A DNA stretch of 64,000 nt. It comes from Escherichia coli. Lineage in GTDB: Bacteria > Pseudomonadota > Gammaproteobacteria > Enterobacterales > Enterobacteriaceae. How positions within the stretch are numbered: the stretch's first letter is position 1; each line of letters begins with the position of its first letter. The notes beneath the pieces were generated by a model that was given only the letters and a program-made list of their open reading frames with translations, did not search any database and was not told the DNA's origin. Positions 4,502 to 16,576 of this stretch are shown piece after piece. Position numbers and translations under genes: made by a program. The DNA lies in NCBI RefSeq assembly GCF_044324875.1, contig NZ_CP172185.1; one strand, written 5' to 3'.

Positions 4502-5215
4502 TCAGAGCGGGTTCTTTTTGTTGCGAATAAGGTTGAGGCTTTCAACCGCAATAGAGAAGAACATCGCGAAGTAGATGTAACCTTTCGGTACGTGGATGTC
4601 GAAACTTTCCAGAATCAGGGTAAAGCCCACCAGAATCAGGAAAGAGAGCGCCAGCATTTTTACCGAAGGATGGCGTTCGACAAAATCACCAATCGAGCGC
4701 GCGGCAAACATCATCACGCCTACGGCAATCACCACGGCTGCCATCATAATAAACAGGTGATCTGACAGACCCACAGCGGTAATCACCGAGTCGAGGCTGA
4801 AGATAATATCCAGCAGCATAATCTGCACGATAGCGCCGAGGAATGATGAAACGCGTGTTTTCAGCCCTTCTTCTTCACCTTCAATGGATTCGTGGATTTC
4901 CTTGCTGGCTTTCCAGATAAGGAACAAGCCACCCAGAAGCAGAATCAAATCACGGGCGGAAATTTCCTGGCTGAATATTGTAAAAAGCGGATTCGTCAGG
5001 CGCGTAACCCAGGCGATTGATGCCAGCAGCGCCAGACGCATAACCATGGCTCCCGCCAACCCCAGACGCCGCGCATGAGCACGTTGTGCTGTGGGGAGCT
5101 TTGCCACCACCAGAGAAAGGAAAATAATATTGTCGATCCCAAGAACGATCTCCAGCAGCGTCAGCGTACCGAGCGCAAGCCAGGCGTTAGGATCGGTTAT
5201 CCATGCAAATAACAT
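4502..5215 (-). CDS. ygdQ: TerC-family integral membrane protein
   Basis: 237-aa hydrophobic ORF; conserved position between ygdR and mutH. Confidence 0.85.
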
Positions 5216-11274: not shown

Positions 11275-11293
11275 TTACGAAACATCCTGCCAG

Positions 11294-11322
11294 AGCCGAC
11301 GCCAGTGTGCGTCGGTTTTTTT
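11294..11322 (+). terminator. rho-independent terminator after thyA
   Basis: GC stem ccgacgc/gcgtcgg followed by T8 run. Confidence 0.6.
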
Positions 11323-11458
11323 TACCCTCCGTTAAATTCTTCGAGACGCCTTCCCGAAATTTTGCAACGTCCTGCAACGGCGTAAATAGTCCGGAAGATG
11401 CGCCGAAGAAATAGAAACTGGCCCTCGTCTTTTTTTCTCCTCGCCCCATACTGCCGGC

Positions 11459-11929
11459 ATGAAAACACAACGTGGTTATACGCTGATTGAAACGCTGGTC
11501 GCGATGCTGATTTTGGTCATGCTAAGCGCAAGTGGACTCTATGGCTGGCAATACTGGCAGCAGTCGCAACGGCTATGGCAAACCGCCAGCCAGGCGCGGG
11601 ACTATTTGCTCTATTTACGTGAAGATGCCAACTGGCATAACCGCGACCACAGTATCAGCGTTATCAGGGAGGGGGCGTTATGGTGCCTTGTGAGTTCCGC
11701 TGCTGGGGCCAATACCTGTCATGGCAGTTCACCATTGGTCTTTGTGCCACGCTGGCCCGAAGTCGAAATGAGCGACCTGACACCTTCGCTTGCTTTCTTT
11801 GGCCTGCGCAATACCGCATGGGCCGGGCATATTCGCTTCAAAAACTCAACGGGCGAGTGGTGGCTGGTGGTTTCGCCGTGGGGAAGACTCCGGCTTTGTC
11901 AGCAAGGAGAAACAGAAGGATGCCTGTAA
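11459..11929 (+). CDS. ppdA: prepilin-type (pseudopilin-like) protein
   Basis: 156-aa ORF; N-terminal prepilin motif [15 protein letters not shown]. Confidence 0.85.
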
Positions 11930-12483
11930 AAGAGCTAGGTTTTTCTCTGCTGGAAGTGTTGATTGCTATGGCGATCAGTAGCGTATTGTTGCTGGGGGCA
12001 GCACGCTTTCTGCCTGCGTTACAGCGTGACAGTTTAACGAGCACCCGTAAGCTGGCGCTGGAAGATGAAATCTGGCTGCGGGTATTTACCGTTGCGAAGC
12101 ATCTCCAGAGGGCGGGTTATTGTCATGGCAGCTGTACCGGCGAAGGGCTGGAAATTGTCGGACAGGGTGACTGTGTCATTGTGCAGTGGGATGCGAACAG
12201 TAACGGTATCTGGGATCGCGAACCGGTAAAAGAGTCCGACCAGATTGGATTTCGTCTGAAGGAGCATGTGCTGGAAACGCTACGCGGTGCGACATCCTGT
12301 GAAGGTAAGGGCTGGGATAAAGTCACTAATCCGGATGCCATCATTATCGACACTTTTCAGGTTACCCGACAGGATGTCAGCGGTTTCTCGCCGGTGTTGA
12401 CGGTTAATATGCACGCTGCCAGCAAGGCTGATCCGCAAACCGTGGTGGATGCCAGCTATAGCGTGACAGGATCCAACCTGTGA
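11920..12483 (+). CDS. ppdB: prepilin-type (pseudopilin-like) protein
   Basis: True start at ATG 11920 (ORF track is 5'-extended); N-terminus [19 protein letters not shown] is a prepilin leader with Glu+5; overlaps ppdA stop. Confidence 0.8.
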
Positions 12484-12887
12484 ACCGCGAAAAGGGTGTT
12501 TCGTCACTGGCTCTGGTCCTGATGCTGCTGATTTTGGGTAGCTTGCTATTACAAGGAATGAGCCAACAGGATCGCAGTTTTGCCTCTCGCGTGAGCATGG
12601 AAAGTCAGTCATTGCGCCGCCAGGCCATCGTTCAGTCGGCGCTGGAGTGGGGAAAAATGCACTCCTGGCAGACGCAGCCCGCAGTTCAGTGCTTACTGTA
12701 TGCTGCCACCGGTGCCCGGGTTTGTCTGCGTTTATTGGCAGATAATGAGGCCTTATTGATTGCCGGTTATGAAGGCGTTTCGTTGTGGCGAACAGGTGAA
12801 GTCATCGATGGAAACATTGTTTTTTCGCCACGCGGCTGGAGCGATTTTTGTCCGCTGAAAGAGAGGGCGTTATGTCAGCTTCCCTGA
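12480..12887 (+). CDS. ygdB: DUF2509-family protein with hydrophobic N-terminus, in the ppd operon
   Basis: 135-aa ORF, GTG start overlapping the ppdB stop. Confidence 0.8.
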
Positions 12888-13195
12888 AGAATCAACAAGG
12901 CTTTAGCCTGCCGGAGGTAATGTTGGCGATGGTGTTGATGGTGATGATTGTCACTGCGTTATCGGGTTTCCAGCGAACATTAATGAACAGTCTTGCCAGC
13001 AGAAACCAGTACCAACAGCTCTGGCGGCATGGCTGGCAGCAAACGCAACTGCGTGCGATTTCGCCACCTGCCAACTGGCAGGTCAACCGAATGCAGACAT
13101 CGCAGGCGGGATGTGTCAGCATCAGCGTTACGCTAGTTTCACCCGGGGGCAGAGAAGGCGAGATGACCCGCCTGCATTGCCCGAATCGTCAGTAG
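12872..13195 (+). CDS. ppdC: prepilin-type (pseudopilin-like) protein
   Basis: Start at ATG 12872 (ORF track is 5'-extended); N-terminus [24 protein letters not shown] is a prepilin leader. Confidence 0.8.
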
Positions 13196-13207
13196 TCAGG
13201 AGCCGCT

Positions 13208-16200
13208 ATGTTAAGGGTCTACCATTCCAATCGTCTGGACGTGCTGGAAGCGTTGATGGAGTTTATTGTCGAACGCGAACGGCTGGACGATCCTTTCGAA
13301 CCAGAGATGATTCTGGTGCAAAGTACCGGTATGGCGCAGTGGCTGCAAATGACCCTGTCGCAAAAGTTTGGTATTGCGGCAAACATTGATTTTCCGCTGC
13401 CTGCGAGCTTTATCTGGGATATGTTCGTCCGGGTGTTACCGGAAATCCCCAAAGAGAGCGCCTTTAACAAACAGAGCATGAGCTGGAAACTGATGACTCT
13501 GTTGCCGCAATTGCTGGATCGCGAAGACTTTACCCTGTTGCGGCATTATCTGACTGACGATAGCGACAAGCGAAAACTGTTCCAGCTTTCCTCAAAAGCG
13601 GCGGACCTGTTTGACCAGTATCTGGTCTATCGCCCGGACTGGCTGGCACAGTGGGAAGCCGGGAATCTGGTAGAAGGACTTGGAGAGGCGCAGGCCTGGC
13701 AAGCGCCGTTGTGGAAGGCGTTGGTGGAATATACCGACGAACTCGGGCAACCGCGCTGGCACCGCGCCAATCTTTATCAGCGCTTTATCGAAACGCTGGA
13801 GTCCGCGACGACCTGCCCGCCGGGGTTACCTTCGCGCGTCTTTATATGCGGTATTTCCGCGTTACCGCCTGTTTATCTCCAGGCGCTACAGGCGCTGGGT
13901 AAACATATTGAAATCCATCTCCTGTTTACCAACCCCTGCCGTTATTACTGGGGCGACATTAAAGATCCTGCTTATCTGGCGAAACTGCTGACTCGCCAGC
14001 GCCGACACAGTTTTGAAGATCGCGAATTACCGCTATTTCGCGACAGCGAAAATGCCGGACAGCTCTTTAACAGCGATGGTGAACAGGATGTCGGCAACCC
14101 GCTGCTGGCCTCATGGGGCAAGCTTGGGCGCGACTACATTTATCTCCTTTCTGATCTGGAGGGCAGCCAGGAGCTGGACGCCTTTGTCGATGTCACGCCA
14201 GATAACCTGCTGCATAACATTCAGTCTGACATTCTGGAACTTGAAAACTGCGCTGTTGCGGGTGTGAATATCGAAGAGTTTTCCCGTAGCGATAACAAAC
14301 GCCTGCTTGATCCACTGGATAACAGTATCACCTTCCACGTTTGCCATAGCCCGCAGCGCGAAGTTGAAGTTTTACACGATCGCCTGCTGGCGATGCTGGA
14401 GGAAGACCCGACACTCACTCCGCGCGACATCATCGTGATGGTGGCCGACATCGACAGCTACAGTCCGTTTATTCAGGCTGTGTTTGGTAGCGCACCTGCG
14501 GATCGTTACCTACCTTACGCCATTTCCGACCGTCGGGCGCGGCAGTCGCATCCTGTACTTGAAGCGTTTATCAGCCTGTTATCACTGCCTGACAGTCGCT
14601 TTGTGTCGGAGGACGTTCTGGCATTACTGGATGTGCCGGTGCTGGCGGCGCGGTTTGACATCACCGAAGAAGGGCTGCGTTATTTACGCCAGTGGGTCAA
14701 CGAGTCTGGCATTCGTTGGGGGATAGATGACGACAACGTTCGCGAGCTGGAACTCCCCGCCACCGGACAACACACCTGGCGATTTGGCCTGACGCGTATG
14801 TTGCTGGGCTACGCGATGGAGAGCGCGCAGGGCGAGTGGCAATCGGTTCTACCTTATGATGAATCGAGCGGCTTAATTGCAGAACTAGTGGGGCATCTGG
14901 CTTCACTGCTAATGCAGCTAAACATCTGGCGTCGCGGGCTGGCGCAGGAGCGTCCGCTGGAAGAGTGGTTGCCGGTTTGTCGCGATATGCTCAACGCCTT
15001 CTTCCTGCCGGATGCGGAAACCGAAGCGGCGATGACGCTGATCGAACAACAATGGCAGGCGATTATCGCCGAAGGTTTAGGTGCGCAGTATGGCGACGCG
15101 GTGCCGCTGTCACTATTGCGTGATGAACTGGCACAGCGCCTGGATCAGGAACGTATCAGCCAGCGTTTTCTCGCCGGACCGGTTAACATTTGTACTCTGA
15201 TGCCAATGCGTTCCATCCCATTCAAAGTGGTTTGCCTGCTGGGAATGAACGACGGCGTTTATCCACGCCAGCTTGCGCCATTGGGCTTTGACCTGATGAG
15301 CCAGAAACCGAAGCGTGGCGACCGTAGTCGTCGCGATGACGACCGCTATCTGTTCCTGGAAGCGTTAATTTCCGCGCAGCAAAAACTCTATATCAGCTAT
15401 ATCGGGCGTTCTATTCAGGATAACAGTGAACGTTTCCCGTCGGTACTGGTGCAGGAACTGATCGACTACATCGGGCAAAGCCATTATCTACCGGGCGATG
15501 AAGCGCTCAACTGTGATGAAAGCGAGGCAAGGGTAAAAGCGCATCTTACTTACCTCCATACCCGGATGCCGTTTGATCCGCAAAACTACCAGCCAGGCGA
15601 ACGACAAAGCTATGCTCGTGAATGGCTACCTGCGGCCAGCCAGGCTGGTAAAGCACATTCTGAATTTGTTCAGCCGCTGCCGTTTACCTTACCGGAAACC
15701 GTGCCGCTGGAAACGCTACAACGATTCTGGGCACATCCGGTACGGGCGTTCTTCCAGATGCGTTTGCAGGTGAACTTCCGTACTGAAGACAGCGAAATCC
15801 CCGACACCGAGCCATTTATTCTGGAAGGGCTTAGCCGTTATCAAATCAATCAGCAGTTATTGAATGCACTGGTTGAGCAGGATGATGCCGAACGCTTGTT
15901 CCGCCGCTTCCGGGCGGCAGGGGATTTACCGTATGGCGCTTTTGGTGAAATTTTCTGGGAAACACAGTGCCAGGAGATGCAGCAGCTTGCCGACAGAGTT
16001 ATTGCCTGTCGCCAGCCGGGGCAGAGTATGGAAATTGATCTCGCCTGCAACGGTGTGCAGATAACTGGCTGGTTGCCGCAGGTGCAGCCGGATGGCCTGT
16101 TGCGCTGGCGTCCCTCTTTATTAAGTGTGGCGCAGGGAATGCAACTTTGGCTGGAACACCTTGTCTACTGTGCCAGCGGTGGTAATGGTGAAAGTCGCCT

Positions 16201-16576
16201 TTTTCTACGCAAAGACGGCGAGTGGCGTTTTCCGCCGCTTGCAGCCGAACAGGCTTTGCATTACCTCTCACAACTGATTGAGGGGTATCGTGAAGGAATG
16301 TCCGCGCCATTGCTGGTGTTACCTGAAAGTGGCGGCGCGTGGCTAAAAACCTGTTATGACGCGCAAAACGATGCCATGCTGGATGACGATTCCACGTTAC
16401 AAAAAGCCCGTACGAAATTCCTTCAGGCTTACGAAGGCAACATGATGGTGCGTGGCGAAGGTGATGATATCTGGTATCAACGGCTCTGGCGGCAATTAAC
16501 ACCAGAGACAATGGAGGCCATCGTTGAACAGTCGCAACGTTTCCTGTTACCGCTGTTTCGCTTTAATCAGTCATGA
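13208..16576 (+). CDS. recC: exodeoxyribonuclease V gamma subunit
   Basis: 1122-aa ORF; RecC sequence; upstream of ptrA-recB-recD. Confidence 0.95.
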   Translation: MLRVYHSNRLDVLEALMEFIVERERLDDPFEPEMILVQSTGMAQWLQMTLSQKFGIAANIDFPLPASFIWDMFVRVLPEIPKESAFNKQSMSWKLMTLLPQLLDREDFTLLRHYLTDDSDKRKLFQLSSKAADLFDQYLVYRPDWLAQWEAGNLVEGLGEAQAWQAPLWKALVEYTDELGQPRWHRANLYQRFIETLESATTCPPGLPSRVFICGISALPPVYLQALQALGKHIEIHLLFTNPCRYYWGDIKDPAYLAKLLTRQRRHSFEDRELPLFRDSENAGQLFNSDGEQDVGNPLLASWGKLGRDYIYLLSDLEGSQELDAFVDVTPDNLLHNIQSDILELENCAVAGVNIEEFSRSDNKRLLDPLDNSITFHVCHSPQREVEVLHDRLLAMLEEDPTLTPRDIIVMVADIDSYSPFIQAVFGSAPADRYLPYAISDRRARQSHPVLEAFISLLSLPDSRFVSEDVLALLDVPVLAARFDITEEGLRYLRQWVNESGIRWGIDDDNVRELELPATGQHTWRFGLTRMLLGYAMESAQGEWQSVLPYDESSGLIAELVGHLASLLMQLNIWRRGLAQERPLEEWLPVCRDMLNAFFLPDAETEAAMTLIEQQWQAIIAEGLGAQYGDAVPLSLLRDELAQRLDQERISQRFLAGPVNICTLMPMRSIPFKVVCLLGMNDGVYPRQLAPLGFDLMSQKPKRGDRSRRDDDRYLFLEALISAQQKLYISYIGRSIQDNSERFPSVLVQELIDYIGQSHYLPGDEALNCDESEARVKAHLTYLHTRMPFDPQNYQPGERQSYAREWLPAASQAGKAHSEFVQPLPFTLPETVPLETLQRFWAHPVRAFFQMRLQVNFRTEDSEIPDTEPFILEGLSRYQINQQLLNALVEQDDAERLFRRFRAAGDLPYGAFGEIFWETQCQEMQQLADRVIACRQPGQSMEIDLACNGVQITGWLPQVQPDGLLRWRPSLLSVAQGMQLWLEHLVYCASGGNGESRLFLRKDGEWRFPPLAAEQALHYLSQLIEGYREGMSAPLLVLPESGGAWLKTCYDAQNDAMLDDDSTLQKARTKFLQAYEGNMMVRGEGDDIWYQRLWRQLTPETMEAIVEQSQRFLLPLFRFNQS

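Follow-up and report, generated by a model that had tools for sequence, protein, structure and literature searches.

Four small pilin-like genes lie directly upstream of recC in the DNA analysed here, which raises the question of which machine their products would serve and how they relate to recC. The window (the complete stretch analysed, 64 kb) spans aas to relA. It belongs to the core chromosome of Escherichia coli and shows 100% sequence identity to strain 118UI. Compared to K-12, the DNA of the locus is 98% identical, with genes, gene order, and neighbors unchanged. The locus is real and conserved, and it has already been described in the literature: it is the ppdAB-ygdB-ppdC locus of E. 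coli K-12 and EHEC (PpdD, or HCP, type IVa pilus), with strain-level differences only. We are confident that the chromosomal PpdD type IVa pilus obtains its four core minor pilins from this ppdA-ppdB-ygdB-ppdC operon. The operon would supply the initiation complex for the cryptic type IV pilus and DNA-uptake machinery of E. coli, which bears on the question if, and under which conditions, this species takes up DNA, as well as on the engineering of pili or nanowires.

The four co-directional and overlapping genes fill positions 11459-13195 (plus strand) and end 12 nt before recC. These are ppdA (11459-11929, 156 aa), ppdB (11920-12483, 187 aa), ygdB (12480-12887, GTG start, 135 aa), and ppdC (12872-13195, 107 aa), the latter encoding the smallest minor pilin of the set. 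Overlaps of 10 nt, 4 nt, and 16 nt connect the four genes in this order. The 12-nt gap between ppdC and recC (13208-16576, plus strand, ATG start) holds a separate Shine-Dalgarno sequence for recC (AGGAG, 13198-13202). Together with the stop codon of ppdC, this shows that the operon is not fused to recC, as had been stated originally, but is only adjacent to it. For ppdC, the program-made ORF list offers a longer version with a TTG start at 12848. We consider the ATG at 12872 to be the start codon because the N-terminus is conserved and the annotation agrees. The RefSeq annotation of the identical 118UI sequence has the same ppdA, ppdB, ygdB, and ppdC, followed by recC. The gene identities given in the original prediction also agree with the scores of the proteins against their own NCBIfam equivalogs: 249 bits for PpdA (NF007800, cut-off 158), 326 bits for PpdB (NF007848, cut-off 120), 255 bits for YgdB (cut-off 159), and 217 bits for PpdC (NF007660, cut-off 86).

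Canonical prepilin leaders had been proposed for three of the proteins, and we find these in the sequence as well as across species. The leaders read MKTQRG^YTLIE in PpdA and MPVKELG^FSLLE in PpdB (the caret marks the predicted cleavage point), and FSLPE directly follows this point in PpdC. The pattern G^[FY][ST]Lx-E is conserved across species in all three. PpdA, PpdB, and PpdC have a class III signal peptide, with a short basic leader up to the Gly and then a hydrophobic helix of about 20 residues that has Glu at +5, and TIGR02532 scores above its cut-off in each of them. In a set of 78 sequences (the window and 77 species), Pfam N_methyl matches PpdA in 78/78, PpdB in 78/78, and PpdC in 71/78 cases, and YgdB in none (0/78). 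The N-terminus of YgdB had been called hydrophobic and degenerate. It is indeed hydrophobic, but it is not degenerate. YgdB (MNREKG^VSSLAL) retains the Gly and a hydrophobic N-terminal helix, and its leader is kept as R/K-G^x-S-S-L-x-x-V-L across the window and 77 species, with only Glu5 missing. Such a Glu5-less leader is the hallmark of GspK/PilX-type subunits, being their known exception pattern, and YgdB would conform to it. The locus has the composition of a core minor pilin set, with four pilin-like genes in one operon and one member devoid of Glu5.

The assignment of each protein to one of the GspH/I/J/K roles is tentative. PpdA may be a GspH/FimU/FimT-like subunit. Pfam GspH matches 4/78 PpdA sequences at E<=1e-3 and 27/78 at E<=0.1, and published work has compared PpdA to FimT by AlphaFold. 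Binding of DNA by PpdA has been proposed (PMC12616744). PpdB, possibly GspJ/PilW-like, has a weak N-terminal match to the gspJ model, and a profile of PpdB orthologs matches the Thermus pilin TTHA1219 (residues 4-150, E = 0.0074). PpdC is presumed to be GspI/PilV-like and matches Pfam T2SSppdC in 78/78 sequences. In the HMM comparison with GspH/I/J/K that had been suggested, the gspH equivalog (TIGR01708) reaches just 18.3 bits, far under its cut-off of 80, and the gspJ equivalog (TIGR01711) 20.8 bits, far under its cut-off of 64.85. A pilin fold, which the original prediction expected from structure prediction, is present in the confident YgdB model (pLDDT 91.7). This model resembles GspK and GspI, and a GspK/PilX-like role would fit. 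YgdB (135 aa) is devoid of the large alpha-domain insertion of GspK, which has a chain of 280 residues. The PpdC model is of low confidence (pLDDT 71.7, pTM 0.30) and consists of a helix (residues 13-58) and three strands; a fold search with it returned nothing informative. PDB profile searches with the four proteins mainly matched N-terminal helices.

No secretin, ATPase, platform protein, prepilin peptidase, or gsp gene is annotated in the 64-kb window, in accordance with the earlier view of a minor (pseudo)pilin module with its machine encoded elsewhere. In K-12, ppdD-hofBC, hofMNOPQ, and gspO are found at other loci, with gspO located within the gsp operon. Among 5426 complete E. coli genomes, ppdD-hofBC is present in 5424 and hofMNOPQ in 5425. 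The cognate major pilin, ATPase, platform, alignment complex, and secretin are all encoded in the same genome. In the literature, ppdAB-ygdB-ppdC supply the minor pilins of a plasmid system that also contains hofB, hofC, hofMNOPQ, and gspO and that assembles PpdD pili. The genes are therefore neither orphans nor poorly understood, as had been thought; published work covers their role as minor pilins of the PpdD pilus, the priming of PulG, induction via Sxy and CRP-S sites, and orthology to comNOPQ. We envisage that each protein would enter the inner membrane through its N-terminal hydrophobic helix and that a prepilin peptidase encoded elsewhere (GspO or PppA) would trim PpdA, PpdB, PpdC, and probably YgdB after the conserved Gly. 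The four subunits would then form a small complex at the pilus tip, with the Glu5-less YgdB as the capping GspK/PilX-type subunit, and prime polymerization of the major pilin PpdD. This polymerization would proceed via the HofB ATPase, the HofC platform, HofMNOP, and the HofQ secretin, which are encoded at two other loci.

One might instead consider the four proteins as spare minor pseudopilins of a type II secretion system (T2SS), which serve the cryptic Gsp secreton and no type IV pilus. The four proteins are known to prime PulG pseudopilus assembly in a pulHIJK mutant, so that they can functionally replace PulHIJK, and the weak matches of PpdA to gspH and of PpdB to gspJ, the similarity of the YgdB model to GspK and GspI, and the Pfam family name "Type II secretion" of PpdC point in the same direction. 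However, the gsp operon of K-12 has its own gspH, gspI, gspJ, and gspK, and the ppd genes, when compared to GspH-GspI-GspJ-GspK of a T2SS (e.g., ETEC GspIJK, PDB 3CI0), are located outside any gsp operon. Because of this separate gspHIJK set, and because the scores for the gspH and gspJ equivalogs fall so far short of their cut-offs, we consider the proteins to be minor pilins of a type IV pilus rather than T2SS pseudopilins. The literature groups the operon with ppdD and hofM-Q in the Sxy regulon and describes the combined use of all these genes for building PpdD pili. We thus see only the slimmest chance that the T2SS assignment is correct. The set of type IV pilus minor pilins also differs from its counterpart in Pseudomonas aeruginosa (fimU-pilV-pilW-pilX). 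There, the gene order is H-I-J-K, whereas it would be H-J-K-I in E. coli. The E. coli operon has no adjoining pilY1 or pilE, its subunits are much smaller (135 aa for YgdB and 107 aa for PpdC), and it lies next to recC, without linkage to any gene of the machine.

A second alternative is that the operon is a decaying relic of an ancestral competence system, which is retained for the sake of a recC promoter and of its position between essential neighbors. E. coli is not known to be naturally transformable, and PpdD pili were obtained only with artificial Sxy or plasmid expression; PpdD pilin was not detected without forced Sxy expression, 72 ECOR strains included. Decay would also be compatible with the degraded CRP-S half-site (TTCGA) in E. 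coli, with the invariant nucleotide element for recC within ppdC (both described below), and with the speed of sequence evolution, which is much higher for the minor pilins (41-76% identity) than for ThyA (91-100%) or RecC (75-98%). The conservation of the locus argues against such a relic. The gene order thyA-ppdA-ppdB-ygdB-ppdC-recC and the overlaps are retained in 79/79 species loci (Enterobacteriaceae loci with upstream DNA). In 77 of these, none of the four ORFs is disrupted, and their lengths, overlaps, and leaders are conserved. The exceptions are one Escherichia locus in which ygdB is truncated to 79 aa, which would again favor decay, and one locus that ends at a sequence edge. Conservation by codon position is 2 > 1 > 3 in every one of the four genes (78 sequences), which indicates purifying selection on the four proteins. 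Furthermore, the locus is found in 5425/5426 complete E. coli genomes, the cognate machine is equally retained, and the proteins function once expressed, as is known from the literature. We consider it highly improbable that the operon is a mere relic.

How the minor pilin operon may be expressed is suggested by the region upstream of ppdA. An intrinsic terminator of thyA (hairpin and T8, 11292..11323, plus strand) was overlooked by a simple terminator scan but is evident from RNA folding (-16.6 kcal/mol, z = -4.98; 0/200 shuffles as good) and from conservation of its stem and T-run in 69 sequences (the window and 68 species loci). This strong terminator would insulate the ppd operon from thyA transcription. 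It is followed by a candidate CRP-S-type site (Sxy-dependent CRP site; 11337..11358, plus strand), which was identified by phylogenetic footprinting and has the core TTCGA-GACGCC-TTCCC at 11340-11355. Relatives have TGCGA-N6-TTCC in the same alignment columns where the window has TTCGA-N6-TTCCC, and the published asymmetric E. coli CRP-S motif is TGCGA-N6-TTCCA (PMC6728893), CRP-S sites being CRP-like sites of 22 bp that have C at position 6 (half-site TGCGA). These similarities suggest a CRP-S function. The E. coli half-site is weaker than that of its relatives because TTCGA has a T where CRP normally contacts G5. While CRP-S sites are palindromic in H. influenzae, they are asymmetric in enterobacteria (PMC6728893), and we did not find a palindromic CRP-S site near ppdA when allowing up to 2 mismatches. 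A sequence scan did not reveal a consensus sigma-70 promoter. Within the thyA-ppdA spacer, conservation is highest in a direct repeat in 10-bp register, TGCAAC-N4-TGCAAC (11363..11378, plus strand). The second of the two copies, CTGCAACG (11372-11379), is a candidate for the -35 region. CTGCAACG occurs exactly 16 nt past the CRP-S core in both the ppdA and the K-12 ppdD promoters. We consider it rather unlikely, but conceivable, that CTGCAACG is a so far undescribed element which is confined to pilin promoters that depend on Sxy (ppdA, ppdD). Transcription of the operon has been reported to require Sxy and cAMP-CRP in a paper that credits Sinha (2009) and Jaskolska & Gerdes (2015) for this finding, and ppdA is the gene most strongly induced upon Sxy activation. 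The operon would thus be essentially silent until Sxy (TfoX) and cAMP-CRP act via the CRP-S site, which is weak and asymmetric and precedes ppdA by about 110 nt.

With such a silent operon directly upstream, it is of interest how recC is transcribed. The ppdC-recC junction is highly conserved, and neither a terminator nor a stable structure was found between the two genes by terminator scan and RNA folding. As no terminator precedes recC, this gene can receive read-through from the operon, and in one paper ppdAB-ygdB-ppdC-recC is treated as a polycistronic unit. Within ppdC, we encountered an invariant 30-nt element (13094..13123, plus strand), which reads cAGACA, 17 nt, TGtCAGCAT. Neither AGACA nor TGTGTCAGCAT varies in any of the 78 sequences, synonymous positions included, and the spacing between them is constant. 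The element holds the sole run of at least 9 nt with at least 88% conservation in the 1.75-kb operon. The third base is kept in 29% of the conserved codons in ppdC vs. 0-4% elsewhere. We infer that the element is a weak promoter of recC, made up of a -35 and an extended -10 region, so that recC is most likely also driven by a weak constitutive promoter of its own in the 3' part of ppdC. This candidate promoter and the identical position of CTGCAACG in the promoters of ppdA and ppdD are what the current analysis adds to the published data, and both would help to clarify recC expression independent of the silent upstream operon.

The element in ppdC and the terminator-less junction might go beyond a housekeeping promoter and form a deliberate regulatory node, although we consider this rather unlikely. 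In that case, the internal promoter would provide a very low, constitutive amount of RecC. Read-through from the ppdA promoter upon Sxy induction would raise RecC relative to RecB and RecD while the DNA-uptake pilus is being built, and the raised RecC level would tune degradation or recombination of the incoming DNA. If true, this would explain why the linkage between minor pilins and recC has survived across Enterobacteriaceae and Pasteurellaceae. In Haemophilus influenzae, the comNOPQ genes (HI0938-HI0941), which are needed for DNA uptake, are likewise four small genes directly upstream of and co-oriented with recC. They are likewise regulated by Sxy/CRP-S, the product of the first gene is a prepilin similar to FimT/GspH, and published work relies on synteny in treating comNOPQ and ppdAB-ygdB-ppdC as orthologs.

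The originally noted four small genes that precede recC are confirmed by the list of ORFs and by the sequence itself, which show them to be co-directional. On the plus strand, ppdA (11459-11929, 156 aa), ppdB (11920-12483, 187 aa), ygdB (12480-12887, 135 aa, GTG start) and ppdC (12872-13195, 107 aa) are followed by recC (13208-16576, 1122 aa). Successive ppd genes overlap by 10, 4, and 16 nt. The genes had been described as fused to the 5' end of recC, which they merely abut: a 12-nt gap, containing recC's own Shine-Dalgarno sequence (AGGAG, 13198-13202), lies between ppdC and recC. The window is an E. coli chromosome segment reaching from aas to relA. Its ppd stretch shows 100% sequence identity to E. 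coli strain 118UI and is found, over at least 80% of its length, in 5425 of the 5426 complete E. coli genomes, with the annotation ppdA, ppdB, ygdB, ppdC, recC.

We consider it very probable that this is the known minor-pilin operon of the E. coli type IVa pilus, a member of the Sxy/CRP-S competence-gene regulon whose products would form a priming or tip complex for polymerisation of the major pilin PpdD. An earlier design for the production of PpdD pili in E. coli has been rebuilt with the assembly genes hofB, hofC, hofM-Q, ppdA, ppdB, ygdB, ppdC, as well as gspO, and ppdA, ppdB, ygdB, and ppdC are each labelled "minor pilin" (bioRxiv 10.1101/856302); the same EHEC PpdD-pilus system, originating in Luna Rico et al. 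(2019), is employed in bioRxiv 10.1101/2021.04.14.439816. As Cisneros et al. (2012) are summarised in PMC5131608, assembly of the PulG pseudopilus can be primed by PpdAB-YgdB-PpdC when pulHIJK is mutated. Four "prepilin peptidase dependent" genes adjoin recC in Pasteurellaceae and Enterobacteriaceae, and the ppd genes are regarded as orthologues of H. influenzae HI0938-HI0941 (Cameron & Redfield, 2006; PMC1635313). DNA uptake requires comNOPQ, which has gene order and recC linkage in common with ppdAB-ygdB-ppdC; the E. coli ppd operon is under Sxy regulation, with ppdA as the strongest-induced gene, and the E. coli PpdA model is that of a FimT-like minor pilin for which DNA binding is possible (PMC12616744). 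The genes ppdAB-ygdB-ppdC-recC have been handled as a single polycistronic unit (PMC3936743). PpdD pilin is induced by Sxy, and natural transformation of E. coli was not obtained (PMC3330819). Locus identity, general function, regulation, and recC synteny are thus already known from published papers, and the locus cannot be called poorly understood.

According to the annotation, the 64-kb window encodes no secretin, assembly ATPase, platform protein, or prepilin peptidase. In K-12, ppdD-hofB-hofC maps to 0.11 Mb and hofMNOPQ to 3.52 Mb; gspO stands last in the gsp operon, an operon with a gspH, gspI, gspJ, and gspK of its own. The outline of the original prediction, a minor-pilin module with its machine at other loci, is borne out. 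The module is dispersed but not an orphan: ppdD-hofB-hofC is present in 5424 and hofMNOPQ in 5425 of the 5426 complete E. coli genomes, and both loci are as universally retained as the ppd operon.

For a comparison across species, 80 species-representative Enterobacteriaceae loci were fetched with the RecC N-terminus as search anchor. The order ppdA-ppdB-ygdB-ppdC immediately before recC was found in all 79 loci with upstream DNA, and thyA is upstream of ppdA wherever the sequence extends that far. Gene lengths are near-constant, as are the overlaps (10 or 7, 4, and 16 nt), and the ppdC-recC gap is mostly 12 nt. All four proteins score above the curated cut-offs of their own NCBIfam equivalog models. 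In each gene, nucleotide conservation decreases from codon position 2 to 1 to 3, which indicates selection acting on the proteins. Compared with these loci, the minor pilins of the window show 41-76% identity; ThyA reaches 91-100% and the RecC N-terminus 75-98%. Fast divergence with fixed N-terminal helices and with every cysteine fixed, as seen in the minor pilins, is typical of proteins exposed at the surface of a pilus tip.

A few loci deviate in detail. In Escherichia sp. MOD1-EC7003 (L004, 1156-1560), ygdB is apparently truncated (79 aa), with a 152-nt gap to ppdC. Some database entries (P0004, P0020, P0031; 228-237 aa) are YgdB-PpdC fusions, which probably result from frameshifts or assembly errors. 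The thyA-ppdA spacer, usually about 185 nt, is 2844 nt in Kluyvera sichuanensis (L040), which indicates that DNA has been inserted between the two genes, and 300-468 nt in Raoultella, Superficieibacter, and one Enterobacter sp. (L026, L029, L034, L042).

Prepilin leaders are kept across species in PpdA (G/[YF]TL[IL]E, the slash marking the cleavage position), PpdB (G/FSL[LP]E), and PpdC (G/FSL[PTV]E). Pfam N_methyl matches PpdA and PpdB in 78 of 78 sequences, PpdC in 71, and YgdB in none; the Pfam matches of YgdB are limited to DUF2509 and, in two members, PilX_N. The YgdB leader had been called degenerate. It is instead conserved ([RK]G/xSSLxxVL), with G6, L10, and L14 invariant and Glu5 absent. 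Leaders that contain Gly but lack Glu5 are the known signature of GspK/PilX-type minor subunits of type II secretion systems (T2SS) and type IV pili, so that the YgdB N-terminus is specialised rather than degenerate. By membership tests, the four proteins stand outside the T2SS GspHIJK families, although they work like GspHIJK. YgdB, the least certain member, was confidently modelled by AlphaFold2 from the alignment (pLDDT 91.7, pTM 0.74) as a helix (residues 2-60) plus a five-stranded sheet, which argues against the lack of a pilin fold. The PpdC model (helix and three strands) is of low confidence (pLDDT 71.7, pTM 0.30), and a fold search with it was uninformative, its hits being long helices with no relation to pilins. 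Sequence profiles searched against the PDB gave little overall: PpdB matched Thermus TTHA1219 (E = 0.0074), PpdA weakly matched only pilin N-terminal helices, PpdD among them, and YgdB and PpdC had no match.

Two minor, testable leads concern regulatory DNA: CTGCAACG, common to the ppdA and ppdD promoters, and a candidate recC promoter within ppdC. We infer the function of these elements from their sequence. The thyA-ppdA spacer opens with a strong, conserved thyA intrinsic terminator (11292-11323; 11-bp stem followed by T8; -16.6 kcal/mol, z = -4.98), and the ppd operon therefore needs its own promoter. This clear terminator was missed by a simple terminator scan, so negative results of that scan should not be over-read. 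Neither a palindromic CRP-S site nor a consensus sigma-70 promoter was found upstream of ppdA. An alignment of 69 sequences (window plus 68 species loci) revealed a conserved TGCGA-N6-TTCC in the spacer, in agreement with the asymmetric CRP-S motif that PMC6728893 quotes for E. coli; the version in E. coli itself is TTCGA-GACGCC-TTCCC (11340-11355). At 11340-11344, E. coli and E. albertii have TTCGA, many other Enterobacteriaceae the canonical half-site TGCGA, and others TTCGG or TTCGA. The CRP-contacted G5 is thereby replaced in E. coli and E. albertii, where the site may be particularly weak. Conserved even better than the CRP-S core is CTGCAACG (11372-11379), 16 nt past that core; it is the second copy of the direct repeat TGCAAC-N4-TGCAAC, and nothing else in the spacer is as well conserved. 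In the K-12 ppdD promoter (L083, the K-12 ppdD region, 4651-4658, minus strand), TTCGT-AACGCC-TCGCA is likewise followed by CTGCAACG exactly 16 nt on; the hofM promoter does not contain it. According to PMC6728893, conservation beyond the CRP site has not been described for CRP-S promoters. With CTGCAA as -35 hexamer, the CRP-S centre would be near -60, corresponding to the class I-like geometry proposed there.

Two blocks in the 3' part of ppdC show no variation, even at synonymous third positions, among the 78 sequences (window plus 77 Enterobacteriaceae species): AGACA (in CAGACA, 13094-13099) and TGTGTCAGCAT (13112-13122), which flank a variable segment of constant length. The element (13094-13123, with the second block read as TGTGTCAGCAT(C)) precedes the recC ATG by 85-114 nt and contains the sole run of at least 9 nt with at least 88% conservation in the whole operon. 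Third bases are kept in 29% of the conserved codons of ppdC, compared to 0-4% elsewhere in the operon. The invariant blocks fit a weak putative promoter with -35 cAGACA, a 17-nt spacer, and an extended -10 TGtCAGCAT, which has the key A-11 and T-7. Its predicted start near 13129 would give a 78-nt leader to recC. RecC abundance is very low (~5 molecules per cell) and recC has been remarked to have its own promoter, with both of which a weak internal promoter would be consistent. Terminator scan and RNA folding found no terminator or stable structure between ppdC and recC, so read-through from the induced ppdA promoter is also expected. A second candidate -10, TACGCT (13128-13133), is TAAAAT, TATAAT, or TACTAT in relatives.
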